Positions 1,816 through 27,515 of a stretch of DNA of 32,376 nt are shown here, piece after piece (the stretch's first letter is position 1; every line of letters begins with the position of its first letter). The stretch lies in the NCBI GenBank assembly GCA_016926985.1, contig JAFGNO010000131.1:1-32376 (forward strand). Reading direction: 5' to 3'. Both the position numbers and the translations under genes were made by a program. The stretch comes from Anaerolineae bacterium. Its GTDB lineage: Bacteria > Chloroflexota > Anaerolineae > Aggregatilineales > UBA3940. The notes below the pieces were generated by a model. It saw only the letters and a list, made by a program, of their open reading frames with translations, was not told where the DNA came from and ran no database searches.

Positions 1816-3240
1816 TTAATGCTCGGATAACAGCCCCTTGCTCTTCAGCAGGGGCACCGGGTTGACCAGATTTTTGCTCAACGCTGCCGACTTTTCCGGC
1901 AGGCCCAGCGCAATTGCCAGCAACTGCGTGAAATACAGGACGGGCATTTCAAAGTCCAGCTTCATCTGGAACTGCCGCGCATCCAGATTCATATGGCAAA
2001 GCGGACACGCCACAGCAATGGCGTCAGCGCCTACCTCCCGTGCCCGTTTGAGTAAATTGCCGCTTAAGTCTAAAACAATATCGGTGCGGGTAAGCGAATG
2101 GGCTGCGCCACAACAGCAGGTTTTATAGGACCAATCCAGCACCTCCGCACCCGCTGCGCAGAGCAGATCGTCCATATCCGTGGGATTTTCCGGGTGCAGC
2201 GCCCCGGTCACTTCCGATGGTCGGGTTAACAGACACCCGTAATAGGTTACGAGTTTCAAGGAATTCAACGGTTGTTGAACTTTTTTCGTTATCTTCTTAA
2301 GTCCCACATGCTGGTGAATGGCTTCAATCAAGGTGCTCACATGCACGCGGTCCTGGTAGGTATATCCGGTTTCTTTTGCGACATCGTCCACGACCTGCCG
2401 ATGTTCATTCAGGTCGTGCACGGCAAACTTGTGTCGGCTGTAGCAGGCGGCGCAGGGCATGGTCACTTCAGAAAAGCCACCCTGCTCAATCAGCACCAGG
2501 TTATCAAATGGCAGCCGGAAAGCCGCTTCAGGATCCATTTTATGAGCCGCTGAACTTCCACAACATCCCCAGCCATCAGGTTCAATCAGGTTAAGGTCAA
2601 GGGCCTCACAGACAGACACTGTTGATGTGTTGTACTCAGCTGCCGTGCCATGCAGTGAGCAACCCGGATAGTAAGCAACGGAACGTGAAGCACCGGCAAC
2701 CGGTTTGACATGCCTGGGCTTACGTGTAGGCGCCGGCATAATGGGTATCTTGTTGCGCTGGAACATGCGTAAGGCCAGGTCGAGATCGGCCATAATATTC
2801 ATGGTGCGCAGTTTTAGCTCCGCCATGAGGCCCGCTTCATAATTGCGCCGCCACAGGCTGACCTCGCGAAGAAAAGCCTGATTGAAGATATTCACTTCTT
2901 TAACAGGGGGCTTGTACCCCCGTGCCACTGACTCCTGGGTGAGAAAATCCATGATCCCTGCAATATCAAGGCCCTGCGGACAGCGAGTAGTACAGGTCTG
3001 GCAGGATGCACATAACCAGGGAGTCTTAGCTTTTAGCGCAATGTCCTCCTGTCCCAGTTGAAGGGCGCGCATGATCTGGTTGGGCTGCCAGTCAAAATAC
3101 TCGGCAACCGGACAGCCCGCCGTGCACTTGATGCACTGGTAGCACAAGTACACGTTTTGTCCCAACTCCTCCTGAACGCGCCGGGCCAGTTCATGAGAGA
3201 TTACAATTGATTCCCCGGGCGATTGGCGTTCGCTGGCCAT
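1816..3240 (-). CDS. hdrCB: Fused heterodisulfide reductase-like HdrC-HdrB protein
   Basis: N-terminal 2x[4Fe-4S] motifs CYQCIKCTAGCP and CASCQTCTTRCP (HdrC), then two CCG domains: YYPGC..GCCG..CAAC and YYGC..CCCG..ACPLCH (HdrB). Confidence 0.92.
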   Translation of the reverse strand: MASERQSPGESIVISHELARRVQEELGQNVYLCYQCIKCTAGCPVAEYFDWQPNQIMRALQLGQEDIALKAKTPWLCASCQTCTTRCPQGLDIAGIMDFLTQESVARGYKPPVKEVNIFNQAFLREVSLWRRNYEAGLMAELKLRTMNIMADLDLALRMFQRNKIPIMPAPTRKPRHVKPVAGASRSVAYYPGCSLHGTAAEYNTSTVSVCEALDLNLIEPDGWGCCGSSAAHKMDPEAAFRLPFDNLVLIEQGGFSEVTMPCAACYSRHKFAVHDLNEHRQVVDDVAKETGYTYQDRVHVSTLIEAIHQHVGLKKITKKVQQPLNSLKLVTYYGCLLTRPSEVTGALHPENPTDMDDLLCAAGAEVLDWSYKTCCCGAAHSLTRTDIVLDLSGNLLKRAREVGADAIAVACPLCHMNLDARQFQMKLDFEMPVLYFTQLLAIALGLPEKSAALSKNLVNPVPLLKSKGLLSEH

Positions 3241-3252: not shown

Positions 3253-4269
3253 CTAGGTTGCAACTACCGGTCTGGGCAACAGACCAGCGCCTTCCACAAT
3301 TGGCTGAACAGCTTCTTCCCACTCGATGGCCATGATATGAACACCCGCAACACCCTTGATTTCCTTGAGTTCGTTGATCAGGTCGATGCAAATCCTGATG
3401 CCCTCATCTTTCCAGGCCTGAGACCGCGCCTTTTTGTCCTCAGTTGTCAATTCTTCTTTGGGAATATCTGCCCAGGGGGCGCTGGCCCGATTCATCCGGT
3501 CTATGACTTTGTCGGGCACAAGAATGCCGGGAACCTGGTTTTTCATATAGCGCGCCATCCCGGGGCTTTTCAATGGCCCAACCCCGGCAAGGATATATGC
3601 CTGCTCATGAAGTCCCATTGAACGGACCTTTTCCATGTAAACGGCAAAGGCCGGGATATCATAAACCAGCTGGGTCTGGATAAAGTTAGCCCCCGCAGCA
3701 ATTTTCTTGGCCAGCCGGTAGGGACGAAACTCGGTCGGGTCGGCAAATGGCGCAGCAGCAGCCCCTACAAAGAACCGGGCTTCAGGGCCTTTAAAAGCCT
3801 CACCGCTCGCAAAAACAGCCGAATCGCGCATATCAGAGACAAGCTTGACCAACTGAAGCGAATCGATATCAAAGACATTCTTTGCCGTCGGGTGGTTACC
3901 AAAACTCTGGTGATCGCCCGTTAAACACAGCAAGTTACGCATGCCTAATGCGTATGCCCCTAACAGGTCACTTTGTATAGCCAGCCGATTGCGATCGCGA
4001 CAGGTCATCTGGATGATCGGTTCAAGACCTTCCTGAACAACTATTGTCCCCGCACCAATGCTGGACATCCGGACAATCGCAGTCTGGTTGTCGGTAATAT
4101 TAACCGCGTCGCAGTTGCCTTTTAGAATGGCAGCCTTATGCCGGATTTCCTGCCCATCAGCACTCTGAGGCGGGCCGAGTTCTCCGGTCACCGCGAAATG
4201 TCCCGCTTTCAGAACCTTTTCAAGATTAGAGCCAACCAGATAGCCATTTGAGGAAGTGGCATTGCTCAT
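3253..4269 (-). CDS. metF: 5,10-methylenetetrahydrofolate reductase, catalytic flavin subunit
   Basis: Motifs VTGELGPP, NITDNQ, QMTCRDRNRLAIQSDLLGA, LCLTGDH, FIQTQ, GVHIMA. Start moved from 4482 to the ATG at 4269 (MSNATSS, GGAGGA RBS), which removes the overlap with metV. Confidence 0.93.
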   Translation of the reverse strand: MSNATSSNGYLVGSNLEKVLKAGHFAVTGELGPPQSADGQEIRHKAAILKGNCDAVNITDNQTAIVRMSSIGAGTIVVQEGLEPIIQMTCRDRNRLAIQSDLLGAYALGMRNLLCLTGDHQSFGNHPTAKNVFDIDSLQLVKLVSDMRDSAVFASGEAFKGPEARFFVGAAAAPFADPTEFRPYRLAKKIAAGANFIQTQLVYDIPAFAVYMEKVRSMGLHEQAYILAGVGPLKSPGMARYMKNQVPGILVPDKVIDRMNRASAPWADIPKEELTTEDKKARSQAWKDEGIRICIDLINELKEIKGVAGVHIMAIEWEEAVQPIVEGAGLLPRPVVAT

Positions 4270-4270: not shown

Positions 4271-4954
4271 CTATTCCTCCTCTGCTGCCAATCGCAGATC
4301 ATCACGCGTGATTTTTCGGGGCCCACCATCTCGGGAGGTGCTCCAATTCTTGGGTGGCTGAAGCTCCAGAAGCGCATCGAGACGCCCCAAACGACTGAGC
4401 CGGTCATATATGAGCTGCCAGGCACAGTCAATATCCGGGTTGATCTCGCAGTGCCCATCTTCCGAGCCTCCGCAGGGCCCATTTAGCAGCGACTTCGAGC
4501 ACCGGGCAATCGGGCAGATACCGCCGGTGATGCCCAGCACACAATCTCCGCATGCTGCGCATCGTTCTATCCATACACCCTGTTCCGTTGGCATCCCAAG
4601 AAAGGTGGTATTCAATCCGGGGACAACCCATTTATCTGGGAAGCGTTCAGCTATTGCCTGAACACCGATCCCACAACCAAGCGAAAGGATAATATCGGCA
4701 TCACTGATCTGCTCTTTTATCTCATCCAGGTATTCCCATTCGCACTGGCGCTGAACCGTCACGTCAGTCACCTCTCTGGGCACGCTGTTCAGTTTGCTGG
4801 TCATTCTGACCGAGGCGGCAACAATCGCCGCTTCACGCGCCCCCCCGGCAAAGCAGACCGTGACGCAGGTGCCACACCCGACAACCAGGACACGTTCATC
4901 GCTGCCCAAAAGCCCCATAATCTCGTCCAGCGGTTTCTGTTCTGCAATGATCAT
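4271..4954 (-). CDS. metV: MetV, Fe-S/Zn subunit of methylene-THF reductase
   Basis: GCGTCVTVCFAGG, RQCE, CAACGDC..GGICPIARCSKSLLNGPCGG..CE..CAWQLIY; directly upstream of metF. Confidence 0.93.
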   Translation of the reverse strand: MIIAEQKPLDEIMGLLGSDERVLVVGCGTCVTVCFAGGAREAAIVAASVRMTSKLNSVPREVTDVTVQRQCEWEYLDEIKEQISDADIILSLGCGIGVQAIAERFPDKWVVPGLNTTFLGMPTEQGVWIERCAACGDCVLGITGGICPIARCSKSLLNGPCGGSEDGHCEINPDIDCAWQLIYDRLSRLGRLDALLELQPPKNWSTSRDGGPRKITRDDLRLAAEEE

Positions 4955-4957
4955 TGG

Positions 4958-5419
4958 TCACTCTCCAGTCGACGTCTCTGTCGTGTATAACGGGTCTTTT
5001 CGCAGTGGGTTTGGCCCCAGCTGCCGGATCTCTTCAGTTAACTTAGCAGCATATTCGGCAAACTGTCCTCCCATGGCAGATGACAAATTGAACATCTGGA
5101 CACGGCTCGCCTCCAGACCAATTTCCAACAGGAGATTCCTGACAAATTCAACCCGCCGCCTAGCGTTGATATTACCTAACAGGTAATGACAGTCGCCTTC
5201 CATTCAACCAGCGACCATAACGCCATCAGCGCCATCCTCAAGCGCCTTGAGAATATGCACCACATCCACTTTGCCTGTACATGGCAGCCCGATTATTCTA
5301 AGCGATTCAGGATAGTTCAAACGCAACGAACCAGCCAAGTCGGCTGCCGCGTAAGCACAATGATGGCAGCAAAATGCGACGATTGTTGGCTCAAAAGCAA
5401 ACTCATCATTTCCTGTCAT
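4958..5419 (-). CDS. mvhD: MvhD/FlpD-family [2Fe-2S] subunit, selenoprotein (in-frame UGA at 5206-5204 read as Sec), ~153 aa
   Basis: Track ORFs 5204..5419 and 4958..5203 are in the same frame and joined by one TGA: GADGVMVAG-U-MEGDCHY. The TGA aligns with the Cys of the paralog (GADGVYVVA-C-PIGNCHH). SECIS-like hairpin downstream. Confidence 0.92.
5171..5187 (-). promoter_or_regulatory. Bacterial SECIS-like hairpin for the mvhD Sec codon
   Basis: mRNA AUUACCU-GUU-AGGUAAU, a perfect 7-bp stem with a G-first loop starting 23 nt after the UGA. Confidence 0.75.
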
Positions 5420-8400
5420 AATTTCTCCCGTTTGTCTGCCAGATCAGACTCGCAGAGCGCAATAAGGTCAAACCTATCCATAAACCGCCCTTTGCCAAAC
5501 AATGCATCAATCTTGGCAATGACCTGAACATCACTGTAGTGCCTCAACTGTATTGCCTGGGCAGGGCACTCACTGGCGCACGTCCCACAACCCTGGCAGA
5601 CAGCAGGTTCAATATACGCGGCCCCCATGATGTTGCCTGTTCCAACCAGAGAAGATTTCACCCGGGGGACACCAAACGGGCACACACGCACACAGGTCAA
5701 GCAACCAGTGCAGCGCGTTTCATCCACAACAGCAATGCTGCCACCCGCGGTCATTGTCTCATAGACAAGCACCTTGGCGGCCTGTGAAGCAGCGGCCTGG
5801 GCCTGAACGATGGTTTCATCGAGCAGTTTGGGATAGTGAGCCATCCCGGCCATAAACAAGCCATCGGTCGAAAAGTCAATCGGCCTGAGCTTGACATGCA
5901 CCTCAAGAAAGAACCCGTCATTGTCGAGATTGGCCTTAAATAAACGGGCTATCTCACGGGATTCTGGCCGGGGAACAACGGGCATACTGAGCACCAGCAG
6001 GTCTGGCTCCAGCCTGACTGTCTGACTGAAAGCCGAATCCCAGGCTGAAACAACCAGGCCGTCGTCGCTCTGCACGTCCGGGGGGTGGTCATCATCATAA
6101 CGAACAAAAACCACTCCCAGTTCACGGGCCTGCGTATACAGCCGCTCTTTGAATCCATAGGCGCGAATATCTTTGTAGATAATGACCACCCGGGCATCGG
6201 ACTTGCGCTGCTTGAGCGCAATGGCGTTCTTGAGCGCAACCGTGCAGCAGATACGGGAACAGTACTGTTCGGCGGGGCCAACACACTGGATCATCACAAC
6301 GGAATCAGGAAGCTCGCCGCCATGCAGGACAGCCTCAAACTGCTGCTGGGTCACGATCCGCGGGTTGGTCCCATACCCGTATTCCGGCCCGCGATATTCG
6401 ATGCCGCCAATCGCCAGTATGGTCGCACCATGCTCCAAGACGGTCCGCTCACCGGTGTTGGTCTCAATGGTGGTGGAGAAATTCCCTCGGAAACCACTGG
6501 CATCCACCACCTGGCTGTTGAGATGAACCGTTACGGCTGGATTCTCCTCCACCTGGTCAACAAGGTGCCGCAGAAATGCGGCGGGGTCCTGACCGTCGGG
6601 CAGGGTATAGGTGTATCGCAGGTTGCCCCCCAGCGCCTCTTCCTTTTCGATCAGATTGACCGGGAATCCCTGCTCGGCAAGGGACAGCGCGGCTGTCATC
6701 CCGGCCACCCCGCCACCGACAACAAGCGCACGCTGCTGGACAGGAACAGTGATCGGCGTCTGCGGGAGCAACTCGGCAGCGCGTCCAACCGCCATCCGGA
6801 CCAGGTCTTTTGACTTGGCGGTTGCTTTATCCCAGTTATGTGAGTGAACCCACGAACACTGGTTGCGGATATTGGCCATCTCAAACAGGTAGGGGTTCAA
6901 ACTGGCGGTGCGCAGGCAGTCGCGGAACAGGGGCTCATGCGTCAGGGGTGTGCAGCTTGCCACCACCACACGGTTAAGGCCACGTTCCCGGATTTCCTCA
7001 GCAATATGGGCGATGCTATCCTGCGAACAGGTATAGAGATTGGATTCCGCGTGTGCCACGCCCGGAAGCGTGGCGGCGTATTCAGCCACCTCAGGCACAT
7101 CCAGATACCCCCCGATATTGGAGCCGCAATGACAGACAAATACGCCAATTCGCAGTTCTTCGCCTGAGACGTCGCGCTCTTCTGGATACTCCGTTTGTTT
7201 GGTCAGGGTAAATCGCGAGTTGCTTAACAGCCCGGCAGCAGCACCTGCCGCCCCGCTGGCCTCAATAACCGATTCGGAAATATCTTTAGGCTCCCGGAAG
7301 GGGCCAACTGCGTATATCCCTTTTCGGCTGGTTTCCAGCGGATCAAACAGGGTGGTATGGCAGAACCCATATTCATCCAGCTCGATTCCAAGCCTGTGAC
7401 CCAGCGCTTTCACCGACTCGGAAATCTCCATACCGACGGAAAGCACTACCAGGTCAAACTGCTCATCATGGGGCGCGCCCTGATCATCGACATAGTGGAT
7501 CAGCAGGTTTCGTGTGTCAGGATCTTCATGAAGCTGGCTGATCCGGCAGCGCGTATACTGCACGCCATAGCGGTTCCGAGCGCGCTCAAAATATCCCCAG
7601 TATCCCTTGGAAAAAGCCCGCATATCCATCATGAATACGTGGATATCCAGGTCCGGCTCGTGCTCTTTGGTGATGATAGCTTCCTTTGTGGCGTACATGC
7701 AGCACACGGCAGAGCAGTAATCGTGGGACTGGTCGCGGGAGCCCACACACTGGAGAAAAGCAATCTTCTGCGGCTTCTGCCCATCAGATGGGCGCTGGAT
7801 ATGCCCCATTGTTGGACCTGAGGCAGACAGAATCCGCTCGTATTGCAAAGCGGTGATCACATTGGGATACCGGCCAAAGCCGTACTCTTCAGACAATTCG
7901 GCACGATACACCTGGTAACCAGGAGCCAGGATAACCGCCCCCACCTGGATCATTTCTTCGGTCGCCGCCATATCATGGTTAATAGCATCCCGCCCGCAGG
8001 CAAAGGTACAGCTCATGCACTCAGAACACACACCACAGGCCAGGCAACGAGCGGCTTCCGCCATGGCGGATTCGTCGTCATAGCCGCCTTCCACCTCGGC
8101 AAAATTGCCTATCCGCTTGCTTACCGGAAGCTCAGGCAGGGGAACCCGCCTCTGCGGTGTAATCTCACCCCGGGCAATACGCTCATCAATCTCCTGCTGG
8201 GTCAGTTTAACCACCGGCAGCTCCGGCTTGGGCGGCGGCTCCAGATGATCCCCCTGCAAATAGCGGATAATCGACCGTGCAGCAGTATGTCCACTGTCAA
8301 CAGCTTCAATGACAAAAGCCGTCCCCGATACGCTGTCGCCCGCTGCAAAAACACCCTCGCGTGTTGCTGCCAGCGTGTTGGGATTGACGGCTATGGTCCT

Positions 8401-9969
8401 TTTGCCAGTCAGCCCGACGCCGGCATCATCGGGGATGAAGGCAAGACCGGCCCGTTGCCCAACCGAAAAGATCACCGTGTCGCACTCAATCAGGTGGGCC
8501 GAGCCCGGAATTTTCTCAACGATCAGCCGACCCATCTCATCAAAGTGAAACGACTCAACCCGATCGCAGCAGACGCCGGACACATGCCCGGACGCATCAC
8601 CGACAATCTCTTCAAATGTACGTCCGGCGTGAATGACGACCCCTTCTTCCTCCGCCGCTAACACCTCCCAGTCATGCGCAGGCATTTCTTCGCGGCTCTC
8701 CAGGCAGGCCAGGTGAACCTCTCTGCCCAGCCGGATGGCAGAGCGCGCCACATCAATCGCCACGTTGCCTCCGCCCAGCACCAGCACGCGCCTGCCAAGC
8801 GGTGGGGCGTCGCCGCTGCCATTTTCATAGCGTCCCAGCCGCACATCACGCAGGAAATGGGTGTTGATCAGCACACCCTCGCGGTTGGCGCCGGGTATGG
8901 GTAGCCGGATGCCTTCATGAGCACCGACAGCAATCAAGACAGCATCAAATCCCTCATCGAACAGGTCGTCGAGGTTATTCACCTGCGCGTTGAGTTTCAA
9001 GGTTACGCCGAGATCAACAATATCCTGAATTTCACGCTCGATGATGTATGTGGGGAGCCGGTATTCCGGCACCCCCAGCCGCAGCATTCCCCCGGCAACC
9101 GGCATCGCCTCAAACACGGTGACCGGATACCCTTCCATTGCCAGGTCCTGGGCGGCGGTCAGTCCGCAGGGGCCCGCGCCGATGATCGCCACTTGTTTTT
9201 CATGGGCAACAGGGACAGGCTCTACAGGCTGCCGTTCTTCTGCGTAGACCTTATCGGTAACAAATCGCTTGAGAGCGCGAATATTCACCGGCTCATCCAC
9301 CAACCCACGGTTGCAGGCTGTTTCACAGCGATGGTTGCAAATACGCCCGCAGATACCGGGGAACGGGTTATCCATCTTGATGACGCGCATCGCGTCATGC
9401 CAGCGCCCTTCACGGATCAACGCAATATAGCCCTGGGCACGCTGTCCAGCTGGACAGGCATCACGGCATGGCGCTATGCCCCGTTTTTCAATGGCAAAGG
9501 CGTTGGGTACAGCCTGTGGATAGAGCTGGTAAACCGCTCGATGTTCGGACAGCCCCTCATTGAAATGATCGGTTATAATAACCGGGCAGACCTCAGCGCA
9601 GTCACCGCATCCAACACATTTTTCCACATCGATATAACGCGGCGCCTGGTGAATGCGAACCGCGAAATCGCCCGCCTCCCCGGAAATGTCCTGCACCTCA
9701 GCCTGGGTGATAATTTTAATATTGGGATGGTTGCCTGTTTCTACCAGCTTGGGAGATATGGTACACATCGCACAGTCATTGGTCGGGAACGTCTTGTCAA
9801 GCTGGGCCATTTTCCCGCCAATTGCCGGCTGCGCCTCGATCAGGTAGACCATAAAGCCCTGATCAGCCAGGTCCAGCGAAGCCTGCATGCCGGCAATGCC
9901 GCCACCGACAACCATGACTGCGCCGGTTGGTCTGAGCTCCTGCTGCCCGGTATTTTCGTTTCCCCTCAT
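5416..9969 (-). CDS. hdrL: HdrL-type large flavoprotein: HdrA module interrupted by a GltD/SudA-like NAD(P)H-oxidoreductase module, then a second HdrA module and a C-terminal ferredoxin
   Basis: GGGIAG and LDKTFPTNDCAMC; insert with PCRDACP, CGRICNHRCETAC, GAGPCG, GGGNVAID, GVFAAGD, EAARCLAC; then QCVGSR..CSAVCC, GVFVCHCG, GGGVAG, CSRICC and two C-terminal CxxCxxCxxxCP motifs. Likely start is the ATG at 9969 (GAGGGG RBS) rather than 10014. Confidence 0.9.
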   Translation of the reverse strand: MRGNENTGQQELRPTGAVMVVGGGIAGMQASLDLADQGFMVYLIEAQPAIGGKMAQLDKTFPTNDCAMCTISPKLVETGNHPNIKIITQAEVQDISGEAGDFAVRIHQAPRYIDVEKCVGCGDCAEVCPVIITDHFNEGLSEHRAVYQLYPQAVPNAFAIEKRGIAPCRDACPAGQRAQGYIALIREGRWHDAMRVIKMDNPFPGICGRICNHRCETACNRGLVDEPVNIRALKRFVTDKVYAEERQPVEPVPVAHEKQVAIIGAGPCGLTAAQDLAMEGYPVTVFEAMPVAGGMLRLGVPEYRLPTYIIEREIQDIVDLGVTLKLNAQVNNLDDLFDEGFDAVLIAVGAHEGIRLPIPGANREGVLINTHFLRDVRLGRYENGSGDAPPLGRRVLVLGGGNVAIDVARSAIRLGREVHLACLESREEMPAHDWEVLAAEEEGVVIHAGRTFEEIVGDASGHVSGVCCDRVESFHFDEMGRLIVEKIPGSAHLIECDTVIFSVGQRAGLAFIPDDAGVGLTGKRTIAVNPNTLAATREGVFAAGDSVSGTAFVIEAVDSGHTAARSIIRYLQGDHLEPPPKPELPVVKLTQQEIDERIARGEITPQRRVPLPELPVSKRIGNFAEVEGGYDDESAMAEAARCLACGVCSECMSCTFACGRDAINHDMAATEEMIQVGAVILAPGYQVYRAELSEEYGFGRYPNVITALQYERILSASGPTMGHIQRPSDGQKPQKIAFLQCVGSRDQSHDYCSAVCCMYATKEAIITKEHEPDLDIHVFMMDMRAFSKGYWGYFERARNRYGVQYTRCRISQLHEDPDTRNLLIHYVDDQGAPHDEQFDLVVLSVGMEISESVKALGHRLGIELDEYGFCHTTLFDPLETSRKGIYAVGPFREPKDISESVIEASGAAGAAAGLLSNSRFTLTKQTEYPEERDVSGEELRIGVFVCHCGSNIGGYLDVPEVAEYAATLPGVAHAESNLYTCSQDSIAHIAEEIRERGLNRVVVASCTPLTHEPLFRDCLRTASLNPYLFEMANIRNQCSWVHSHNWDKATAKSKDLVRMAVGRAAELLPQTPITVPVQQRALVVGGGVAGMTAALSLAEQGFPVNLIEKEEALGGNLRYTYTLPDGQDPAAFLRHLVDQVEENPAVTVHLNSQVVDASGFRGNFSTTIETNTGERTVLEHGATILAIGGIEYRGPEYGYGTNPRIVTQQQFEAVLHGGELPDSVVMIQCVGPAEQYCSRICCTVALKNAIALKQRKSDARVVIIYKDIRAYGFKERLYTQARELGVVFVRYDDDHPPDVQSDDGLVVSAWDSAFSQTVRLEPDLLVLSMPVVPRPESREIARLFKANLDNDGFFLEVHVKLRPIDFSTDGLFMAGMAHYPKLLDETIVQAQAAASQAAKVLVYETMTAGGSIAVVDETRCTGCLTCVRVCPFGVPRVKSSLVGTGNIMGAAYIEPAVCQGCGTCASECPAQAIQLRHYSDVQVIAKIDALFGKGRFMDRFDLIALCESDLADKREKL

Positions 9970-10049
9970 GAACCCCCTCACGGATGCTGCCCGATCAAAC
10001 AAAGCAGCGTTCAACCAATGCGTGCCCTCGAAAAGCTCCCTCCTGAGGC

Positions 10050-10568
10050 TTATTCTGTGGCATGCGGCCTGCGCCCACGCCAGCCAACCTCCTCATCCGG
10101 CCCCTCAATTCGCCCGGTATCTGGTACGCCAACATCTGATTTCTGGGGTTTGATGGGGTTAGGGCCAAGTTTTCGGATACGCTCAGTCATCTCATGTGCT
10201 GCCATCGCAAAGGAATGGCCCTGGCTGCCTGACATGAAGAACATCTCAAGCCTGTCACCCCCAATGCCAATCTCGTCAAGAATCGCCTTTGCGCGATTCA
10301 GGCGAGCCAGCCCCCGTTCATTTCCCCTGACATGATGGCAGTTGCCAATCGGGCAGGCAACAACGTAAACGCCGTCAGCGCCCTGTTCAAACGCTTCAAG
10401 CAAATAGCGGACATCCGTTTTACCGGTGCAGGGCATCCGGATGAATTTGATATTTGCGGGGTATTGAATCTGCTGGATTCCGGCTGTATCTGCAGCCATG
10501 TATCCACAATAAATACAGTAAAACGCGGTAATTTCTGGCTCGAAATTGCTGGATTGCTGGGAGTTCAT
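10050..10568 (-). CDS. mvhD: MvhD/FlpD-family [2Fe-2S] subunit, Cys-type, with a C-terminal extension
   Basis: FYCIYCGYMAAD, RMPCTGK, GADGV..ACPIGNCHH, LGPNP; ATGA overlap with the upstream hdrA. Confidence 0.92.
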   Translation of the reverse strand: MNSQQSSNFEPEITAFYCIYCGYMAADTAGIQQIQYPANIKFIRMPCTGKTDVRYLLEAFEQGADGVYVVACPIGNCHHVRGNERGLARLNRAKAILDEIGIGGDRLEMFFMSGSQGHSFAMAAHEMTERIRKLGPNPIKPQKSDVGVPDTGRIEGPDEEVGWRGRRPHATE

Positions 10569-13500
10569 TTAGCCACCTCAGCGCTGATATGGGTCTGCCA
10601 GCTTCCTAACCCACCAATGGAATGAAGCATCATCTGTTCGTCAGTGTAATGCACCAACTGGATTGCATTGGCCGGACATTCGCCAGCGCAGGTCCCACAG
10701 CCCTGGCACTGCGCAGTGTCAATATACGCCGGGCTGCCCAATCCCCCCACCCCAGTCATGTCATCGCGTGGGACAATCTGCGGGATGGCAAACGGGCAGG
10801 TCCGGGTGCAGGTCAGACACCCGACACATTTCTCCGGATCCACAACCGCGACAATGCCTCCCAGATGCAGCGCCTGCTGGGACAGCAAAGGTAAAGCCCT
10901 TGCGGCAGCAGCCAGCGCATGACTGATGCTCTCCTCAATAAACTTTGGATAATGCGCCATACCAGCAAGGAATATACCCTCGCGCATGAAGTCCATGGGA
11001 CGCAGCTTCATCTGGGCTTCTGTGAAAAACCCCTCAGTAGACAGCGGAACCCTCAGTATCTCAGCCAACGCATTGGCCCCTTTGGCGGGCCCAATTGCCA
11101 TACTGATCGGGACCAGATCAGCAGGCAGGTCCAGCCAGCGTTTAATCGTCATATCATAGACGCGGACATGCAGACGGTTGCCATGCCTCACCAGCAAGGG
11201 CGGTTGGCTGTCCTCATAGCGAACAAACAACACACCTAGCTTCCGTGCAGCTTCGTAAAACTCCTCCCGGAACCCATAGGTTACGATATTTTTATAAACT
11301 ATTGTGAGTTGACAATCCGGGTTGAATAATTTGAGGCGAATGGCGTTTTTCATCGTATTGGTACAACAAACCCGCGAACAATATTCCGGGCTGCCGGGAG
11401 GACGAACACACTGTATCATGACAACTTCGCGCAAGGAAGCAATCTGGCCCGGTTCGTGGATAATCATCTCCTCAAGACGCTGCTGTGTGATCACTTCGGG
11501 ATAGACCTCAGCGTTGGTGAGCCACGGATGTTCCTGCGTTTCCCTGCCCCCTGTTGCCACAATCGTCACACCATGCTCGATCTCGGTGTTCGTAAATGAA
11601 CCATCCAGATGACGAGTGTGCAGAACCGCCTGGAAAAATCCCACATGGCCCCGGTGATCGATCACCTCAGTCCGGGTATGGGCCACGATCCGCTGGTGGG
11701 ATCGAACCCGGTTGACCAGGTCCCTCAGCAGACGCTGCGGCTGGTAGCCCTCTGCCACATAATACAGGTTCAAAAGGTTGCCGCCGAGCATATCCTCTCG
11801 CTCGACCAGGTGGACATCGCACCCACTGTCAGCAATGGCCAGCGCCGCCGACATCCCTGATACTCCCCCCCCAATAACCAGAGCCGTTGGGTGACAACTA
11901 TGCATATCTTTGTGAACCGGTTGCGCCAGCACAACACGTCCGGTAGCTGTACGCATGAGTTCAATTGCCTTCTGTGTCACTCTGCCCGGTTGCGCCCTAT
12001 GCACATTGGCACACTGCTCACGAATGTTAACCAGTTCGATAAGGTAGGGATTCAGCCCGACTTCCCGTATGGTGCGCTGGAATAATGGATCATGCGTCCG
12101 GTTGCTGCATGCTCCAATCACCACGCGGTTCAAGTTATACTCGTTGATTTTTTGTTTGATATGATCTGTCCCCGCCATAAAACAGGCATAGTCAATCACT
12201 TCTGATACGACTACATTCGGCCAGTGCGCAGCCTGCCTGAGCACCTCAGGGAGGTCGATTACCTCACTGATCACCTCACCGCATGAACAGGCAAAAATCC
12301 CCACTCTCGGAGACTGGGCGGTAATATCCCTCTCCGGTGGCAGCGTTTCATTGGCAAGGAAGGGCCATTCCCGTGTGAACTGGAAAGTGTTCAACCGGTC
12401 ATTGAGCAGCCGCATGACTTCTGCGGCTGCGCCGCTGGCATCGATGATCGTTTCAGAAATCTCCTTGGGAGAAGAAAAGGCGCCGCAGACAAAAACCCCT
12501 GGACGCGAGGTTTGCAAGGGCGTGAACTTATCTGTCTGGCAAAAGCCATACTCATTCAACTCGATATCCAGCATCTCAGCCAGTTCCCCGGCCGAGTCGG
12601 GTGGTTGAAGCCCGGTTGCCAGCACAACCATCTCATATCGTTCGTGAATTAGTTCACCCCGCTCATTGGCATACTGAAGAATCAAATCACCCGTAAGTGG
12701 ATCCTCCTGAACAGCCGATACCCTGCACCGGACATAGTTGATATGGTGGGTTTCTCGGGCCTGCTCAAAATACTTGCTGTATTCCTTGTTAAACGCGCGT
12801 TCATCCATAATGAAGACGGTACAGACAGCATCTTCACCCATCCGCTGTTTGGCCAGAATAGCCTCTTTGGTGGCGTACATACAGCAGATGGATGAACAGT
12901 ATTTATTTTCCCTGTCCCTGGAGCCAATACATTGCAGCCAGGCAATTGACCGGGGTTTCCGTTGGTCAGATAGACGACTTATCACGCCTTCGGTCGGGCC
13001 GGACCGGCTGGCAAGTCGCTCATAGGTCATGGCATGCAAGACATTTCGGAAACGTCCATAGCCCAGTTCATCCAGGCTGGAGGGGTCATAAGTCTGAAAG
13101 CCCAGCGCCAGGATAATGGCGCCCACATTGATGCCGATCAGTCTTGGTTGTTCGCTCAGGTTGATGGCCCCTGTCGGGCAGATTTCCTGACATTTGCCAC
13201 AGTCGTCACAATAATCACCTTTATCAATCGCATACGAATCCGGTGCAGCTCGCCCGGCTAATTTGAAGGCTGCCTTTCGTGTCGCCAGGTTATCCTGGTA
13301 GGAATCGGGGAGTTCAACCGGGCAGACACGAGCACAGTCTCCACAGTTGGTGCATAACTCAGGGTCGACATAGCGAGGATTCTGGCGCACTGAAACGCTG
13401 AAGTCCCCTGCCTGTCCTTCCACACCAACTATCCGTGAGTTGGTCAATATCTCGATATTGGGATGTCGGTTGTGATCGATATATGCCGGAGACAAAGAGG

Positions 13501-13738
13501 GGCGGGTGCATCCAAACCCATGATCTGCAGTTCCACGACAAAGCACACAGTCATGCTGGGGAAACATATATCCCAGTTGAGCCACCCGCCCACCCAGACA
13601 GGGCGTTTGTTCAACAAGATATACCTGCAATCCGGCATCGGCCAGGTCAAGAGCGGCTCGCATACCGCCGATGCCACCACCGACAACAAGTGCTGCTGCT
13701 GGCTGCCCTTTTGCAGTGCGGGAGCGAAGTGGTTCCAT
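10565..13738 (-). CDS. hdrA: Tandem (double-module) HdrA-like flavoprotein
   Basis: Two GGGxxG FAD motifs (GGGIGG, GGGVSG), two QC..CS..CC cluster motifs, internal and C-terminal ferredoxin motifs. Likely start is the ATG at 13738 (GAGGA RBS). Confidence 0.9.
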   Translation of the reverse strand: MEPLRSRTAKGQPAAALVVGGGIGGMRAALDLADAGLQVYLVEQTPCLGGRVAQLGYMFPQHDCVLCRGTADHGFGCTRPSLSPAYIDHNRHPNIEILTNSRIVGVEGQAGDFSVSVRQNPRYVDPELCTNCGDCARVCPVELPDSYQDNLATRKAAFKLAGRAAPDSYAIDKGDYCDDCGKCQEICPTGAINLSEQPRLIGINVGAIILALGFQTYDPSSLDELGYGRFRNVLHAMTYERLASRSGPTEGVISRLSDQRKPRSIAWLQCIGSRDRENKYCSSICCMYATKEAILAKQRMGEDAVCTVFIMDERAFNKEYSKYFEQARETHHINYVRCRVSAVQEDPLTGDLILQYANERGELIHERYEMVVLATGLQPPDSAGELAEMLDIELNEYGFCQTDKFTPLQTSRPGVFVCGAFSSPKEISETIIDASGAAAEVMRLLNDRLNTFQFTREWPFLANETLPPERDITAQSPRVGIFACSCGEVISEVIDLPEVLRQAAHWPNVVVSEVIDYACFMAGTDHIKQKINEYNLNRVVIGACSNRTHDPLFQRTIREVGLNPYLIELVNIREQCANVHRAQPGRVTQKAIELMRTATGRVVLAQPVHKDMHSCHPTALVIGGGVSGMSAALAIADSGCDVHLVEREDMLGGNLLNLYYVAEGYQPQRLLRDLVNRVRSHQRIVAHTRTEVIDHRGHVGFFQAVLHTRHLDGSFTNTEIEHGVTIVATGGRETQEHPWLTNAEVYPEVITQQRLEEMIIHEPGQIASLREVVMIQCVRPPGSPEYCSRVCCTNTMKNAIRLKLFNPDCQLTIVYKNIVTYGFREEFYEAARKLGVLFVRYEDSQPPLLVRHGNRLHVRVYDMTIKRWLDLPADLVPISMAIGPAKGANALAEILRVPLSTEGFFTEAQMKLRPMDFMREGIFLAGMAHYPKFIEESISHALAAAARALPLLSQQALHLGGIVAVVDPEKCVGCLTCTRTCPFAIPQIVPRDDMTGVGGLGSPAYIDTAQCQGCGTCAGECPANAIQLVHYTDEQMMLHSIGGLGSWQTHISAEVAK

Positions 13739-13907
13739 AGAGCATTCCTCGACGTTGAAAACCACGTACAACTAACGGAAATACACCATTAACAAATGGA
13801 CGTGTGAATAGGACTATGAAGTCTGAGTGGTAGGCGGGAGAAGGTGAACGTGGAGTAGTTAGCGTGATTGTGTGTGAGAGTTCTGTTTTATGCAGCTATT
13901 TAAATGC

Positions 13908-14115: not shown

Positions 14116-15357
14116 TTAGTGCTCCGCTGGTACACTGTCAGCCGCAGGATAGATAGGCAGATAGCGCACTCCCAGTGTCAGGCCCAGCAACGCATAAGCA
14201 ATGATTCCCAGAAACGCGCCAATTTCAATCAGCGTAGGCGTATAGGACAATCGGGGGAAAAGAAAGGCCGTTCCAGGAGACCAATCGAGCGGCACAACCA
14301 GGCCGGAGATAGTTGTATTCCAGCGGAGCATAACAACGCCAACAATGGTCAAGGCAGCGGCCAGCATAAGCATCCAATCATTCTCACGCAGACGTCGCCA
14401 CATATAAATGATAGCAGGCAGAATTCCCCCGATCAGAACCTCAACCCACCAGAAAGTCGCCCCATAGGGAGATGTCTGGTATAGAAGCTCCAGGCCCGCC
14501 TCGGTAGCAGGAAGACTGCTGTAGTAGTTAGTGGCTGCCCAGTTCCACACCTTTAAATAGAGATAAAAGAGCAAGGCTGCGCCAGCAATCAGCGCCAGAT
14601 CGCGTAAAACGCCCGGCTTAACCACATATTTTCCCCGCAAGAGGCTGACAACCAGGGTAACCAGCAAGGTCGCCGACAGGCCGCCAGCCACAGCCGACAG
14701 GATAAATTGGACCGGCAGCGAGGGGTTATACCAGAGCGGTCGGGCAGCAATAATACCATACGTTGCACCAAGAGAAGATTGGTGCAGGAGTGATAGGACA
14801 AGACCAATCAGCGCAAATATCGGCGTGAAGCGATGAAGCTGGTGGGCCGCTTTCGGTGCAGCCGCCCAGCGCGCCTTGACAACGTCGCTCTCCAAAACAA
14901 CAACCGCGATCTCAAGCGCCAGCACTGTGAAGTAAAACACCACGCACATCGTGATTTCCCACAACACCGAGTGGACATTCCAGTAAACCAGTGGATGCCA
15001 GAACCGATCCGGGCGGCCAATGTCCAGGGCAAGGGCCAGCATCGCAGAGGAGTATCCCAGAAACCCACCAAGCACAGCGATCCGGGCAACCCCCTCAAAC
15101 CGCTTGATGTTCAGCAGGTAAACAACCGCCGATAGAACAAACGCGCCTGCTCCCAGACTGATTGCTGAGAGGTCCAGGGCAATCCACAATCCCCACGGTA
15201 TCTGGTGTGACAGCCCGGTAACACCCAACCCTTTAGCAAATACCACCACTCCACACACAACGCCAATCACCAGCAGAATCCCCAGGAGGCCAATCCAAAT
15301 TTTCAGGCCCAGAGGCATGTCAAGCCATGGTAGCTTTTTCATAACGGCGCCTGTCAT
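14116..15357 (-). CDS. NrfD/PsrC-family (HmcC/HybB-like, ~10 TM) quinone-interacting membrane subunit
   Basis: PWGLWIA, LALDIGRPDRFWH, SVLWEI, LSLLHQSSLG, RPLWY motifs; many hydrophobic helices. Confidence 0.9.
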   Translation of the reverse strand: MTGAVMKKLPWLDMPLGLKIWIGLLGILLVIGVVCGVVVFAKGLGVTGLSHQIPWGLWIALDLSAISLGAGAFVLSAVVYLLNIKRFEGVARIAVLGGFLGYSSAMLALALDIGRPDRFWHPLVYWNVHSVLWEITMCVVFYFTVLALEIAVVVLESDVVKARWAAAPKAAHQLHRFTPIFALIGLVLSLLHQSSLGATYGIIAARPLWYNPSLPVQFILSAVAGGLSATLLVTLVVSLLRGKYVVKPGVLRDLALIAGAALLFYLYLKVWNWAATNYYSSLPATEAGLELLYQTSPYGATFWWVEVLIGGILPAIIYMWRRLRENDWMLMLAAALTIVGVVMLRWNTTISGLVVPLDWSPGTAFLFPRLSYTPTLIEIGAFLGIIAYALLGLTLGVRYLPIYPAADSVPAEH

Positions 15358-16145
15358 GAGATCACCATCCCTTCAGCCGGGATATAGTAGACGTTAGGCT
15401 CCGTGCCCAGGTCTTCTTTCAGCTTAAAAGTAGGCGTACTGGCAATGAGTTTCGCCACTTCTGATTCCGGGTCATTCAGATCGCCAAACAGCCGGGCCTG
15501 AACCGGGCAGATATTGACACAGGCAGGTGTTGCAGAACGATCAACACCGGGCATCAATCCCTGTTCCAACCCGCGATCGATCCGGTGCACACAGAAAGTA
15601 CACTTTTCAACCACCCCACGCGGGCGGCGCTCGATTTCAGCAACGCCATATTCTGGCTGATAGGGATTTACATCGCTCCGGGGGGAGTAGTTGAAACGCC
15701 GCGCATCATAAGGGCAGGCCACCATGCAATACCGGCAGCCAATACAGCGGTCATAATCCATCACCACCACGCCATCCCCTCGCTGATAGGTGGCATGCAC
15801 CGGGCATACGTCAGCGCATGGCGGGTCCTGGCAGTGCAGGCAGGGACGAGTCATGTGGAAAATCTGACCCGTGACCGTCCGGTCCGGCGTGTAGACATTC
15901 CACAGCATATCTTCAGCAGTATCGTTTACTGCCCGGCATGCATAAACACAATACTGGCATCCAATACACTTACTCAGGTCGATCACCATCACCCAGCGGT
16001 GATTTCCTTCTGCCGTTTCTTCAGCATTGACCCGGTGAGCAATCCCCGGTGAGGCCAGCGCCGCGGCAACTGCTGTGGAGAAACCAGCAATGCCAAGCGC
16101 TTCCAGGAACTTCCGCCTGCTAACAGGCTTTACGTTTTCTGTCAT
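15354..16145 (-). CDS. NrfC/DsrO-like 4x[4Fe-4S] protein with a Tat signal
   Basis: SRRKFL twin-arginine motif; CIGCQYCVYAC, CLHCQDPPCADVCP, CIGCRYCMVACP, CTFC..CVNICP. Likely start is the ATG at 16145 (GAGGAG RBS). Confidence 0.9.
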   Translation of the reverse strand: MTENVKPVSRRKFLEALGIAGFSTAVAAALASPGIAHRVNAEETAEGNHRWVMVIDLSKCIGCQYCVYACRAVNDTAEDMLWNVYTPDRTVTGQIFHMTRPCLHCQDPPCADVCPVHATYQRGDGVVVMDYDRCIGCRYCMVACPYDARRFNYSPRSDVNPYQPEYGVAEIERRPRGVVEKCTFCVHRIDRGLEQGLMPGVDRSATPACVNICPVQARLFGDLNDPESEVAKLIASTPTFKLKEDLGTEPNVYYIPAEGMVIS

Positions 16146-16146
16146 G

Positions 16147-18573
16147 CTACTCTGTCTCCTCATCGACCCGTTCATCGTCCCACTTACCAAACCTGGCAGT
16201 AATGAAGGAGCGATTCCGGCAAATGAAGACCCCTATTCCGCCAACAACCAGACCAATCGCCGCGCCTTTTATAATATTCAGAATAGTTCTGTTGCGGTCT
16301 TCATGCATAAGGGTCTCGACCTCTGCCTGAAGCTCACTGATCAGAAGCTCTTCTTCTGTTCCCAGCAGAATAGACTCTTCGGTATCCGTTCGGGAGAATC
16401 CATCATCCACATTGCTGGGAACCAGTTCAATATCCTGATGGCAATCCAGGCAACTGGTCACATTGACCCGGAAGTCGTGTCCGGTGGGTTTCTGCCCATC
16501 CGGGCGCTGTGTATAAGAGTCGGGATTCACATAGCCATGGCAGTCGCGGCAGACCAGGCCCGCCTCCACATGCGACTGGTGAGCAAAATCATCAAGCTGG
16601 TGGCTGTGGCAATTCAGGCACTGCGTGACCTGGTCTTCGAAGCGCAGGCCATTTGTATGGGCATAGTGGCAGCTTGTACAGGTCATACCTGCAACCTCAT
16701 GCAAACTGGCGCGGAACTCGGCTTCTGACACTGTGTGACAGTCTGCACAGGCGGTGATCGCATCATTCAGTCCGGCAGCCACAGCAGGATGGCCCTCAGG
16801 GACCTGTCCATGGCAGGCTTCACAGGCAACGCCTTCGGCATGGTAGCTTTCCAGCGCAGGGCTGTAACCAGTGGTATGGCAGTCCAGACAGTCAGGATCG
16901 TAATTGCGCTCTCCCCAGGATTCCTGGAACCCATTATTAGAATAGGCATGGGCATGAGGCGTTTCGACCCAGTCGTTGACTATAGCACTGTGGCACTCAA
17001 CACAGGTAGATGGAATCTGATCAATTGGATTGGAGGGCGCAGCAGATGGAGGCTCACCGGTCGGTTCTTCAGTCAGTTCTGGCTCCGGCTCCGCTGGAAC
17101 AGGCGGGAAGGTCGACAATACCTGGACCTCTTCAGAAGAGTAGCCAAGCGCGATAAAATCGAGCCGCCCGTTCTCAGTGTGGCAATCCATGCAGCCAAGG
17201 GCTTCCTCGGCAGGGGCCACCTGGTGGGTAATCGGCCAGTACATAACGCTTTCGATCTGCTCATACGAACCGCTGTATTCGACATCGCGCTGGGCCAGCC
17301 CTTCCTGCAAAGCCAGGTCCATATCCCATACTTTCCAGAAAGCTGTTGTATCATCCGCGTTGTAGGGAAACAGGTGAGGGATGCCAATGACGTTGTTCAC
17401 CGGGTCGTAGGGTTGGATACCGGTGAACACCTTGAAGGGCCATATCTTGCCATCTTCCCGGCTCCCAAGAATGGCATTTACTGTGAAATTGGTATCAGGG
17501 TCAACGCCCTCCTCAAACAGCGCATAGTCATATACGCCATTTGACCAGAAATACTCGGGCTGCACATCCATTTCCCAGGTGAATGACCCCTTGCGCGAGT
17601 CATAAACATGGACCTCAAAACCGTTGACCTCCTCGCTGACAATCCAGGGATATCCCCCTTCAGGATTGGGCTGTCCTGCTTGTGACCAGTCCCAGGTCAT
17701 CATTGACGGCGCACCGCGAGCAAACTCCGGAATATGGCAGGTCTGGCAGGCGATAAACCCTGCATGGGTATTCAAAGCAGCAACATCTGCATGTGGCTCT
17801 GCTGTGTGGCAGTTCTCACAGGTAGCCCCTTCGCCCGTATAAGCATCTGCCACATAGCGCCCACCGGAGATATTGTGGTTTTCGGTGATGTGGCAATCGG
17901 TGCAGGAGAAATCAAGTCCATCGGAACTCATGTGAACATCTTCCTCCCAGGCAGGATCAAGCAGAGACGTGTCCAGGTCGCCGTGTTTCACACCATCTCC
18001 CCCGCCGCCTGTGAAGTGACAGGAACCACAGGTCTGGCGGCTGGTTGCCCCGACATTTTGCGCCACATAAGCCAGGTCTACCGGCGGCCATTCCACGCCG
18101 CTCAGGATTATTGGCTCTCCCAGCACCGGGTTACCGGCTGCTGTGGGGAACTTGGCATAAGTGCCAGTTGTATCATGGCAGACCAGGCAGTCTATCAACT
18201 CCGGGTTCTCGAAATCGAACGTGTCATCACGCCAGCCATAGCCAATATGGCAGCTCGTGCAACGCGGTTCATTTGAGTCTATTGCAATGCAGTAGTTGTT
18301 GATGACATACCGTTTACCCACGGTCTCGCCAATCACCTCATTCTCATATTCCCAGGTCCAGTGGACAGTGCTCATAATATCGCTGGCGACATTGGCATGG
18401 CAGGTCAGACAGGCCGCAGTCACCTCAGGGCCAGATTCAAATGGCCCTTCTAACAACGTAAAAGTTGAGTGATCCATCCCCTGCTGGGCAACAGCCTCAT
18501 CTTGCGTAAGCAAAATCAGGCCCAGCGCAGCGCTCAGTGAAATCACTATTGCGACAACATGCGTACGTTTCAT
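16147..18573 (-). CDS. 16-heme cytochrome c: octaheme tetrathionate reductase (OTR)-family domain, Pro/Glu linker, second 8-heme domain, C-terminal TM anchor
   Basis: 16 CxxCH motifs counted (8+8); OTR signatures HWTW, GK..INNYC, CTSCHIGYGW, GGGDGVKHGD, WDWSQAG, PITHQVAP; N-terminal Sec signal. Confidence 0.88.
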   Translation of the reverse strand: MKRTHVVAIVISLSAALGLILLTQDEAVAQQGMDHSTFTLLEGPFESGPEVTAACLTCHANVASDIMSTVHWTWEYENEVIGETVGKRYVINNYCIAIDSNEPRCTSCHIGYGWRDDTFDFENPELIDCLVCHDTTGTYAKFPTAAGNPVLGEPIILSGVEWPPVDLAYVAQNVGATSRQTCGSCHFTGGGGDGVKHGDLDTSLLDPAWEEDVHMSSDGLDFSCTDCHITENHNISGGRYVADAYTGEGATCENCHTAEPHADVAALNTHAGFIACQTCHIPEFARGAPSMMTWDWSQAGQPNPEGGYPWIVSEEVNGFEVHVYDSRKGSFTWEMDVQPEYFWSNGVYDYALFEEGVDPDTNFTVNAILGSREDGKIWPFKVFTGIQPYDPVNNVIGIPHLFPYNADDTTAFWKVWDMDLALQEGLAQRDVEYSGSYEQIESVMYWPITHQVAPAEEALGCMDCHTENGRLDFIALGYSSEEVQVLSTFPPVPAEPEPELTEEPTGEPPSAAPSNPIDQIPSTCVECHSAIVNDWVETPHAHAYSNNGFQESWGERNYDPDCLDCHTTGYSPALESYHAEGVACEACHGQVPEGHPAVAAGLNDAITACADCHTVSEAEFRASLHEVAGMTCTSCHYAHTNGLRFEDQVTQCLNCHSHQLDDFAHQSHVEAGLVCRDCHGYVNPDSYTQRPDGQKPTGHDFRVNVTSCLDCHQDIELVPSNVDDGFSRTDTEESILLGTEEELLISELQAEVETLMHEDRNRTILNIIKGAAIGLVVGGIGVFICRNRSFITARFGKWDDERVDEETE

Positions 18574-26615: not shown

Positions 26616-27512
26616 TTACGAACCTGTTCGGCGGCGGGTTCGCCGTTCCCGGCGGCGGCCATCGTGTTCTTCGCCGCTGCGGTTTGCAGCCAGCCAACTG
26701 GCACAGTTCTCGTCACGCCCCATCATCACATCTGCTGCAAGGATGGTCATTCTGATATCCTCTTCAAGCGGGTTGGCAATCGCGCAGGGCATCCCTAATG
26801 CAATTGCCATCGCCAGAAAGGTGGCGTTCAGCCGGATGCGCCCGGGCAGGCCAAATGACACATTGCTGGCCCCGCAAACAGTGTTCACGCCCAGTTCATC
26901 CCGGCAGCGACCGACCAGTTTAAAAACCGCTCTACCGGCCATAGGGACGGCACCAACAGGCATAACGAGCGGATCGACCAGCACATTTTCGCGGGAAATA
27001 CCGTGATCTTCAGCCCGTCGCACGATTTTCCTGGCGATCTCAAACCGCATATCAGGGTCCTCTGAAATGCCGGTTTCGTCGTTGCAGATTGCGATGACAG
27101 CAGCGCCGTATTTTTTTATCAGCGGCAAAACTGCCTCCAGCCGTTCTTCTTCCCCCGTAACCGAGTTGACAAGCGCTTTCCCTTCATAGGCCTCCAGACC
27201 AGACTGCAAAGCAGCGATGATTGAGGAGTCGATTGAAAGTGGGACATCAGTCACCGCCTGCACCCGCCTGACAGCTTCAGCAAGAATGGCAGGCTCATCG
27301 GCAAGAGGAATGCCTGCGTTGACATCCAGCATCTGCGCCCCGGCGCTGACCTGAGCTGCCGCATCCGACTCCACCCGGCTGTAGTCTCCCGCCGCCATCT
27401 CAGCGGCCAGCATCTTCCGCCCGGTTGGGTTAATCCGTTCCCCAATGATGACAAAAGGATGGTCTGGGCCAATCACAACAATTTTAGTCTTCGAGCTCAA
27501 AGTTGTCTTCAT
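26616..27512 (-). CDS. Pterin-binding methyltetrahydrofolate:corrinoid methyltransferase (MeTr/AcsE-like; stand-alone MetH folate domain)
   Basis: IIGERINPTGRK, LDVNAG, PLSIDSS, LVNSVTGE, LVDPLV, GASNVSFGLPGR. Confidence 0.9.
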   Translation of the reverse strand: MKTTLSSKTKIVVIGPDHPFVIIGERINPTGRKMLAAEMAAGDYSRVESDAAAQVSAGAQMLDVNAGIPLADEPAILAEAVRRVQAVTDVPLSIDSSIIAALQSGLEAYEGKALVNSVTGEEERLEAVLPLIKKYGAAVIAICNDETGISEDPDMRFEIARKIVRRAEDHGISRENVLVDPLVMPVGAVPMAGRAVFKLVGRCRDELGVNTVCGASNVSFGLPGRIRLNATFLAMAIALGMPCAIANPLEEDIRMTILAADVMMGRDENCASWLAANRSGEEHDGRRRERRTRRRTGS

Positions 27513-27515
27513 AAC

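Follow-up and report, generated by a model that had tools for sequence, protein, structure and literature searches.

In the 2006 census of Zhang et al., FrhD/MvhD proteins ranked third in size among the bacterial selenoprotein families, and the census counted 19 genes and described conversions between selenocysteine (Sec) and cysteine (Cys) in both directions (PMC1794560). In the part of that census available to us, the Chloroflexi are credited with three selenoproteins in three families, which are not specified there, and a figure legend describes SECIS-like remnants in Cys forms (PMC1794560). The family PF02662 also appears among the selenoprotein families in a 2026 review (PMC13188914). In Desulfobacterium autotrophicum HRM2, MvhD1, MvhD2, MvhD3 and MvhD5 are reported to be Sec proteins, each encoded downstream of hdrA or hdrL (PMC2702500). 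BamF, which belongs to the class II benzoyl-CoA reductase of Geobacter metallireducens, is reported to contain Sec19 in an N-terminal motif, where it lies near the cluster as a non-ligand (bioRxiv 10.64898/2026.04.10.717634).

With respect to function, VhuD is described as an adaptor that links HdrA to a module for electron input (PMC13518236, PMC6019823). Genes for MvhD are further known from the hdrABC-mvhD-metVF clusters of marine Anaerolineae and from the HdrCBA-MvhD-MetVF methylene-tetrahydrofolate (methylene-THF) reductase of Moorella thermoacetica; the available text of the paper concerned makes no mention of Sec in MvhD (PMC5736913). Sec-containing formate dehydrogenases and selB have been reported from single cells of Anaerolineales (PMC4959059). 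In our literature search, no publication was found in which a Sec-MvhD is named for Anaerolineae, although supplementary tables may list one.

The locus described here lies in a window of 32,376 nucleotides (contig JAFGNO010000131.1 of assembly GCA_016926985.1) from an Anaerolineae bacterium. Positions 4958-5419 on the reverse strand very probably constitute one gene for a 153-residue MvhD-type [2Fe-2S] electron-transfer protein, in which the UGA at codon 72 stands for Sec. The gene is found next to genes of the Hdr type, and its nearest named homologues are records from Anaerolineae, Anaerolineales and Promineifilaceae metagenome-assembled genomes (MAGs; Chloroflexota).

Results

An mvhD gene with an in-frame TGA

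The list of open reading frames (ORFs) contained two abutting entries in the same frame of the reverse strand, 5204..5419 with 71 aa and 4958..5203 with 81 aa. Between their coding parts (5419-5207 and 5203-4961) stands a single TGA at 5206-5204, located in the context ...GTC GCT GGT TGA ATG GAA GGC GAC TGT CAT TAC CTG TTA GGT AAT...; the actual stop codon, again TGA, lies at 4960-4958. When the first TGA (5204..5206), which occupies a Cys column of the homologues, was translated as Sec (U), a complete gene was obtained (mvhD-Sec; 4958..5419, reverse strand) with 153 aa plus stop, U as residue 72 and no frame defect other than that TGA.

The joined protein matched PF02662 (MvhD/FlpD) over the entire profile (1-123/123) with an E value of 1.1e-47 and 161.5 bits (cut-off 22.3). 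Six distinct solved MvhD/VhuD-type chains matched it across the break (E 2.5e-37 to 1.2e-31), aligning to query residues 9-141, and Cys-type homologues with 58-68% identity to the joined protein continued unbroken through the split point. In public gene calls mvhD-Sec is filed as two proteins, one of 71 aa and one of 81 aa. The original prediction had seen in the two ORFs an intact selenoprotein MvhD, made by UGA recoding, which pipelines would split at the single TGA. The split was found exactly so, in the ORF list and in the public proteins, and the core of the prediction is upheld by the full PF02662 match together with the Sec/Cys alternation and the conserved hairpin presented below.

The stretch was found in one DNA sequencing run (X1); no RNA run was listed for it. 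A separately assembled X1 contig of 6387 nt covers positions 4300-6300 with two differing letters (4331 and 4424). TGC or TGT in the data would have pointed to an assembly error, as had been proposed beforehand; the contig has no listed difference at 5204-5206, with the qualification that X1 is probably the source sample and hence gives no independent support for the codon. Summed contig depth in X1 was 36.5 in the bin 5171-5237, which includes the TGA and the hairpin, versus 7.9 in most other bins. Short X1 contigs of other organisms have matches of at least 90% here, in keeping with the conservation of the nucleotide sequence. Nothing matching the stretch was present in two metatranscriptome runs from this study, a result that has no bearing on expression.

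Sec and Cys at the codon 72 column

In an alignment of 18 sequences, residues C18, C21, C47 and C77 were invariant. Column 72, with U in the query, was nearly invariant Cys (16 of the 17 other sequences). In the public homologue P0007 the Sec column is occupied by W (...VAGWLEGDC...), a gene caller having most likely translated a TGA under another genetic code. The solved VhuD-type chain 9sfi_K contains X at exactly two places, and these align with C21 and U72 of the query. Given that an example of the FrhD/MvhD/VhuD family is listed with two Sec in the 2026 review (PMC13188914), we infer that both X residues of 9sfi_K are Sec. The alignment of one of them with U72 agrees with the initial claim that Sec is known at this MvhD/VhuD column.

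The literature on MvhD-type proteins that was searched yielded no statement on which Cys residues ligate the [2Fe-2S] cluster. There are five conserved Cys/Sec columns, and if the N-terminal one is a non-ligand as in BamF, column 72 would supply one of the cluster's four ligands. By this elimination, residue 72 is a putative [2Fe-2S] ligand.

Relatives were searched in a total of 41 genomes, namely that of the window and 40 others. Of the best 13 places outside the own genome (at least 170 bits), 12 had one in-frame TGA and one (in G017) had none. The TGA was located at the motif column in all 11 TGA loci inspected, a set that does not include the second TGA place in G010 and one in G012; in G017 the column is occupied by TGC. 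A larger set of 80 loci was drawn from genome contigs. The motif was present in 77 of them and absent in three, and among the 77 the motif column was TGA in 47 and TGC or TGT in 30, counts that overstate independence because the loci are kin, the 80-locus set and the relatives being overlapping parts of the same species-representative collection. The alternation of Cys and UGA that was to be looked for in an ortholog alignment was hence evident in the motif-bearing loci.

A conserved hairpin downstream of the UGA codon

Sixteen nucleotides past the UGA begins a hairpin, AUUACCU-GUU-AGGUAAU (5171..5187, reverse strand), which has a stem of 7 bp and a G-first loop of 3 nt and encodes H-Y-L-L-G-N. 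The first base of the loop, G, lies 23 nt after the A of the UGA, in agreement with what had been noted beforehand for the hairpin at 5187-5171. A weaker lower stem (GGCG...CGCU) extends the structure to an element of 36 nt (5162..5197, reverse strand) with a folding energy of -10.4 kcal/mol (z -2.35); 4 of 200 shuffled sequences folded as well. While the 60-nt stretch after the UGA was no more stable than its shuffles (z -0.22), the 36-nt and 17-nt elements were.

Published constraints for bacterial SECIS (bSECIS) elements, as far as given in the available part of the review, are (i) a loop of 3-9 nt with G in its first two positions; (ii) a stem of 4-16 bp; (iii) a distance of 16-37 nt from the UGA to the loop; (iv) a minimum free energy of -7.5 kcal/mol or lower. 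The first loop positions are stated to be mostly G, followed by G or U (PMC13188914). The element of the window lies within all four, having the loop GUU, 7 bp, 23 nt and, for the 36-nt element, -10.4 kcal/mol. An Rfam scan of positions 4800-5500 with E values up to 10 gave five matches at chance level and no SECIS family.

Conservation is a stronger argument than folding that the hairpin exceeds chance. The 6-bp core stem was complementary in 47 of 47 TGA loci versus one of 30 Cys loci (L041). In the upper helix, 98.8% of the cells were paired in the 47 distinct Sec rows, as opposed to 64.3% in the same columns of the 30 Cys rows; the corresponding values for the lower helix were 83% and 61.7%, and slid controls for the pair counting, taken over the whole structure, did not exceed 58%. 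Two pairs were changed on both sides among the Sec rows (AU to UA and UA to GC). The former change occurred in three Desulfobacteria loci, where Tyr TAC is replaced by Phe TTC together with Gly GGT by GGA, turning an A-U pair into U-A; in L112 the closing U-A pair has become G-C. Synonymous sites were fixed as well: His was encoded by CAT in 47/47 TGA loci but in only 13/30 Cys loci, and Asn by AAT in 47/47 versus 9/30. The Gly codon of the TGA loci was GGT in 44 cases and GGA in three. The GUU loop of the window is unique among 48 Sec rows, all others having GGA or GGU.

Two Cys-type orthologues with TGC at the column (L022:1678-1743 and L041:3190-3249) have kept a full hairpin of the SECIS type. 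They look like recent conversions from Sec to Cys with a remnant SECIS.

Genes for selenocysteine synthesis and insertion

The genome to which the window belongs is a MAG of 2.28 Mb in 249 contigs with a completeness of 80%. It contains a tRNA-Sec (72.5 bits, cut-off 47), to which ARAGORN assigned the anticodon tca, and selB (323.5 bits, cut-off 242). The gene selA was found in two pieces at contig ends, G000:C166:2824-3432 (model positions 1-196) and G000:C96:3520-4287 (193-454), which together cover the model from 1 to 454; the split is an assembly break and not a broken gene. The assembly, which is 80% complete, yielded no selD gene above the cut-off. Its only selD match (76.5 bits, cut-off 125) was dropped as a candidate, being a generic protein of the AIRS fold that scored equally for hypE and thiL. 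The search for the Sec machinery, which had been suggested as a check, was therefore positive for tRNA-Sec, selB and selA and negative for selD.

Among 24 relatives, selD above the cut-off was present in 21, and 18 of these 21 genes had one in-frame TGA (for example L119-L121), so that SelD itself is a selenoprotein in this lineage. As the presence of selD in relatives indicates that the lineage decodes Sec, the gap in the own genome is most simply explained by missing assembly. In the families FdhA (TIGR01591) and HdrA/HdrA2 (NF040770), no further in-frame TGA was seen in the own genome.

Genes surrounding mvhD-Sec

All genes described in this section are located on the reverse strand. Directly upstream of mvhD-Sec lies an hdrL-type gene (5416..10014; 1532-aa ORF) in whose product Pfam and NCBIfam show HdrA-like modules joined to a GltD/NfnB-like NAD(P)H module. 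The stop codon TGA of this gene (ending at 5416) overlaps the ATG of mvhD-Sec (starting at 5419) in the form of ATGA. Further upstream, a paralog termed mvhD-Cys (10050..10568; 172 aa; PF02662 E 6e-42) shares 42% identity with the Sec copy. It has Cys at the aligned column within ACPIGNCH and no hairpin after the Cys codon. The ATG of the paralog (starting at 10568) overlaps the stop of an hdrA-type gene (10565..13771, ending at 10565; Pfam/NCBIfam), again as ATGA. The Cys paralog with its ACPIGNCH motif and the coupling of each mvhD to a different HdrA-type gene, by overlaps at 5416/5419 and 10565/10568, were among the features originally predicted and were recovered without change.

On the other side, metV (DUF5981; 4271..4954; PF12225 E 3e-38) starts 3 nt after the stop of mvhD-Sec. 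A GGAG of its own precedes the metV ATG by about 9 nt; polarity on metV, as had been considered, is therefore not obligatory. There follow metF for methylene-THF reductase (3253..4269; PF02219 E 9.3e-36), with its ATG at 4269 one base after the metV stop, and an hdrCB fusion with 4Fe-4S dicluster and CCG domains (1816..3240; PF02754 and Fer4, with TIGR03288/TIGR03290 below cut-off). Genes of hdrA type, mvhD, metV, metF and hdrC/hdrB thus occur in one string, which is the composition of an Hdr-MvhD-MetVF cluster.

The mechanically assigned ORF starts are probably too long. For metF, the ATG at 4269, preceded by GGAGGA, is the most likely start; likely starts of hdrL and hdrA are ATG 9969 (preceded by GAGGGGG) and ATG 13738 (the first ATG), respectively. 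The possibility that either of the latter genes extends across an in-frame TGA was rejected, as there are stop codons throughout the region preceding hdrA, and hdrL starts at least 36 nt after the stop of the paralog.

Immediately upstream of hdrA, genes for an NrfD-type membrane protein (14116-15357), a 4Fe-4S protein (15354-16190) and a multihaem cytochrome c of 808 aa (16147-18573) may represent a membrane module (14116-18573) linked to the Hdr string. At a greater distance (26616-31127), the window contains genes for a pterin-binding methyltransferase, a DUF1638 protein, a homocysteine-S-methyltransferase-like protein and a RACo corrinoid activator, that is, methyl-branch and corrinoid genes near the metVF module.

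In those loci of the larger set that had room downstream of mvhD, metV followed in 55 of 75, made up of 31 of the 46 loci with a Sec form and 24 of the 29 with a Cys form. Another hdrL-type gene took the place of metV after the Sec-type mvhD in 15 of the 46 Sec loci (L038, L040, L042 and 12 more). Two Sec-type copies about 6.8 kb apart on one contig (G010:C1) point to tandem hdrL-mvhD(Sec) modules. A Cys-type copy was located about 5 kb from a Sec-type copy on the same contig in G005, G010, G018, G028 and G032; the Cys form of G017 likewise has a second Cys-type copy about 5 kb away on the same contig. The ATGA couplings and the paired copies of relatives fit a predicted arrangement in which each MvhD would have a dedicated HdrA-type partner.

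Phylogeny of Sec and Cys forms

A quick tree was calculated from only 129 columns of 79 sequences, comprising the 77 motif-bearing loci, the Sec copy of the window and, as outgroup, its Cys paralog; the three loci lacking the motif were left out. Of its 74 inner branches, 37 were unresolved. The window protein was placed in a group of 55 rows (SH-aLRT 85) consisting of 44 Sec and 11 Cys forms with labels almost entirely from Chloroflexota. The Sec/Cys label changed 10 times by parsimony, with at least four changes forced by well-supported branches; the mean for shuffled labels was 24.8. Three Cys-type sequences (L061, L109 and L111) from MAGs labelled Alphaproteobacteria or Flavobacteriia formed a group (SH-aLRT 99) inside the Chloroflexota part, and this placement could reflect either transfer or mis-binned contigs.

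Alternative explanations for the TGA codon

A real stop at UGA72 with a restart at the adjacent ATG, giving an MvhD assembled from chains of 71 and 81 residues, would be compatible with the ATG that follows the TGA in the window and with the separate listing of both halves in public gene calls. However, the codon next to the TGA was ATG in only 5 of 48 Sec rows, the others having TTG (3) or CTG (40), so the restart is not conserved. The cluster-binding Cys residues would be divided over two chains, a split form is seen in none of the solved homologues, and the covarying hairpin present in 47 of 47 loci would be left unexplained. We regard this possibility as very improbable. Even less credit is given to a pseudogene with a nonsense mutation, or to a Cys codon that was altered by a mistake in sequencing or assembly. 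Only one base separates TGA from TGC or TGT, and the MAG is fragmented, but the same codon occurs at the same column in 47 other loci from separate genomes, and the PF02662 match is of full length with the frame otherwise intact. The X1 assembly, although probably derived from the same sample, has no listed difference at the codon.

The TGA might also be read as Trp, Gly or Cys, by a variant code or by near-cognate read-through, and the protein would then be made without selenium. The W at the column in P0007 would be in line with this, although it probably stems from a gene call under another code, and so would the failure to find selD in the own genome. Against it stands that TGA terminates hdrL, hdrA and mvhD in the window, each time with the start of the next gene following, that the genome keeps tRNA-Sec (tca), selB and selA, and that the recoded TGA is tied to a hairpin of the SECIS type. 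We judge it as improbable as a mutation or an error. The preferred reading is that of one intact gene in which codon 72 specifies Sec.

Discussion

Direct observations were the gene anatomy, the family assignment, the alternation of Sec and Cys, the conservation and covariation of the hairpin and the genes for tRNA-Sec, SelB and SelA; from these, actual insertion of Sec at codon 72 of the predicted selenoprotein is deduced. On this basis, we propose that the ribosome would reach the UGA at codon 72 and that the 7-bp stem with its G-first triloop, located 16 nt further on within the coding sequence for H-Y-L-L-G-N, would recruit SelB carrying Sec-tRNA(Sec). Sec would be inserted at codon 72, and translation would continue to the stop at 4958-4960. 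MvhD-Sec would thereby be made just after HdrL, the HdrA-like protein with an NAD(P)H module, and just before MetV, MetF and HdrCB. Its most likely role is that of single-electron adaptor in a Moorella-type methylene-tetrahydrofolate reductase complex (Hdr-MvhD-MetVF) belonging to the Wood-Ljungdahl pathway, while the Cys-type MvhD presumably serves the HdrA encoded upstream. We infer that Sec72 has its place at the [2Fe-2S] cluster or next to it, and the presumed partners in the complex are those suggested by the gene string.

A more far-reaching scenario combines two ideas and is, taken as a whole, rather unlikely. In the MvhD clade, the sequence coding for H-[Y/F]-L-E-G-N after the cluster motif might be a ready-made SECIS site that becomes a SelB-binding hairpin by synonymous codon choice alone. 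If this were true, lineages could switch the column between Cys and Sec repeatedly, for which the tree of 79 rows gives at least four and by parsimony 10 changes. At the same time, Anaerolineae might have a selenium-dependent HdrL-MvhD-MetVF-HdrCB reductase alongside a selenium-independent Cys-MvhD/HdrA pair; the output of the former would then track the selenium supply, whereas the pair encoded in the same operon would be independent of it.

The window gene is in all probability a genuine Sec-encoding mvhD, yet the selenoprotein family has been known for two decades (PMC1794560, PMC2702500, PMC13188914), and the finding opens no new kind of biology. The use of selenocysteine by Anaerolineales has been published before, and Sec-MvhD proteins next to hdrA or hdrL have been described for bacteria since 2006-2009 (PMC1794560, PMC2702500). 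The value of the finding lies in annotation. The gene of the window and 47 alike in species-representative genomes, mostly Chloroflexota MAGs, encode complete selenoproteins where gene callers report two fragments, and these split calls give the impression that the Wood-Ljungdahl pathway of such genomes has a broken methylene-THF reductase module. The near-invariant hairpin provides a simple DNA signature by which split mvhD calls can be found and mended. In addition, the carbon metabolism of sediment Anaerolineae would include a selenium requirement.

When compared with archaeal VhuD (9sfi_K), the window protein is similar in having a non-standard residue at the U72 column. It differs in that the second X of the archaeal chain falls on the column of C21, which is Cys in the window protein. 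SECIS elements of archaea are typically located in untranslated regions and not in the coding sequence. With the FrhD/MvhD/VhuD family in general, as far as described in the census, the clade shares frequent exchange of Sec and Cys and SECIS remnants in Cys forms, exemplified here by L022 and L041 (PMC1794560). BamF resembles the window protein in that both are MvhD-like adaptors of bacterial origin with a single Sec; BamF contains a [2Fe-2S] cluster, as is predicted for the window protein. According to its published description, however, the column of Sec19 is not that of U72, and BamF is more than 100 residues longer (bioRxiv 10.64898/2026.04.10.717634).

Gene set and order around mvhD-metV-metF, including the fusion of hdrC to hdrB, are like those reported for the clusters of Moorella and marine Anaerolineae (PMC5736913). 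In contrast to these, two HdrA-type genes are present in the window. Each is paired with an mvhD of its own, and it is the Sec form that lies next to metV. Features reported for D. autotrophicum HRM2 that recur in the window are a bacterial PF02662 Sec protein encoded directly after HdrA or a large HdrL (a glutamate-synthase-like fusion) and the co-occurrence of Sec and Cys paralogs in one genome (PMC2702500). Unlike HRM2, the window originates from another phylum (Chloroflexota/Anaerolineae), and neither of its HdrA-type genes has an in-frame TGA, both being Cys forms.
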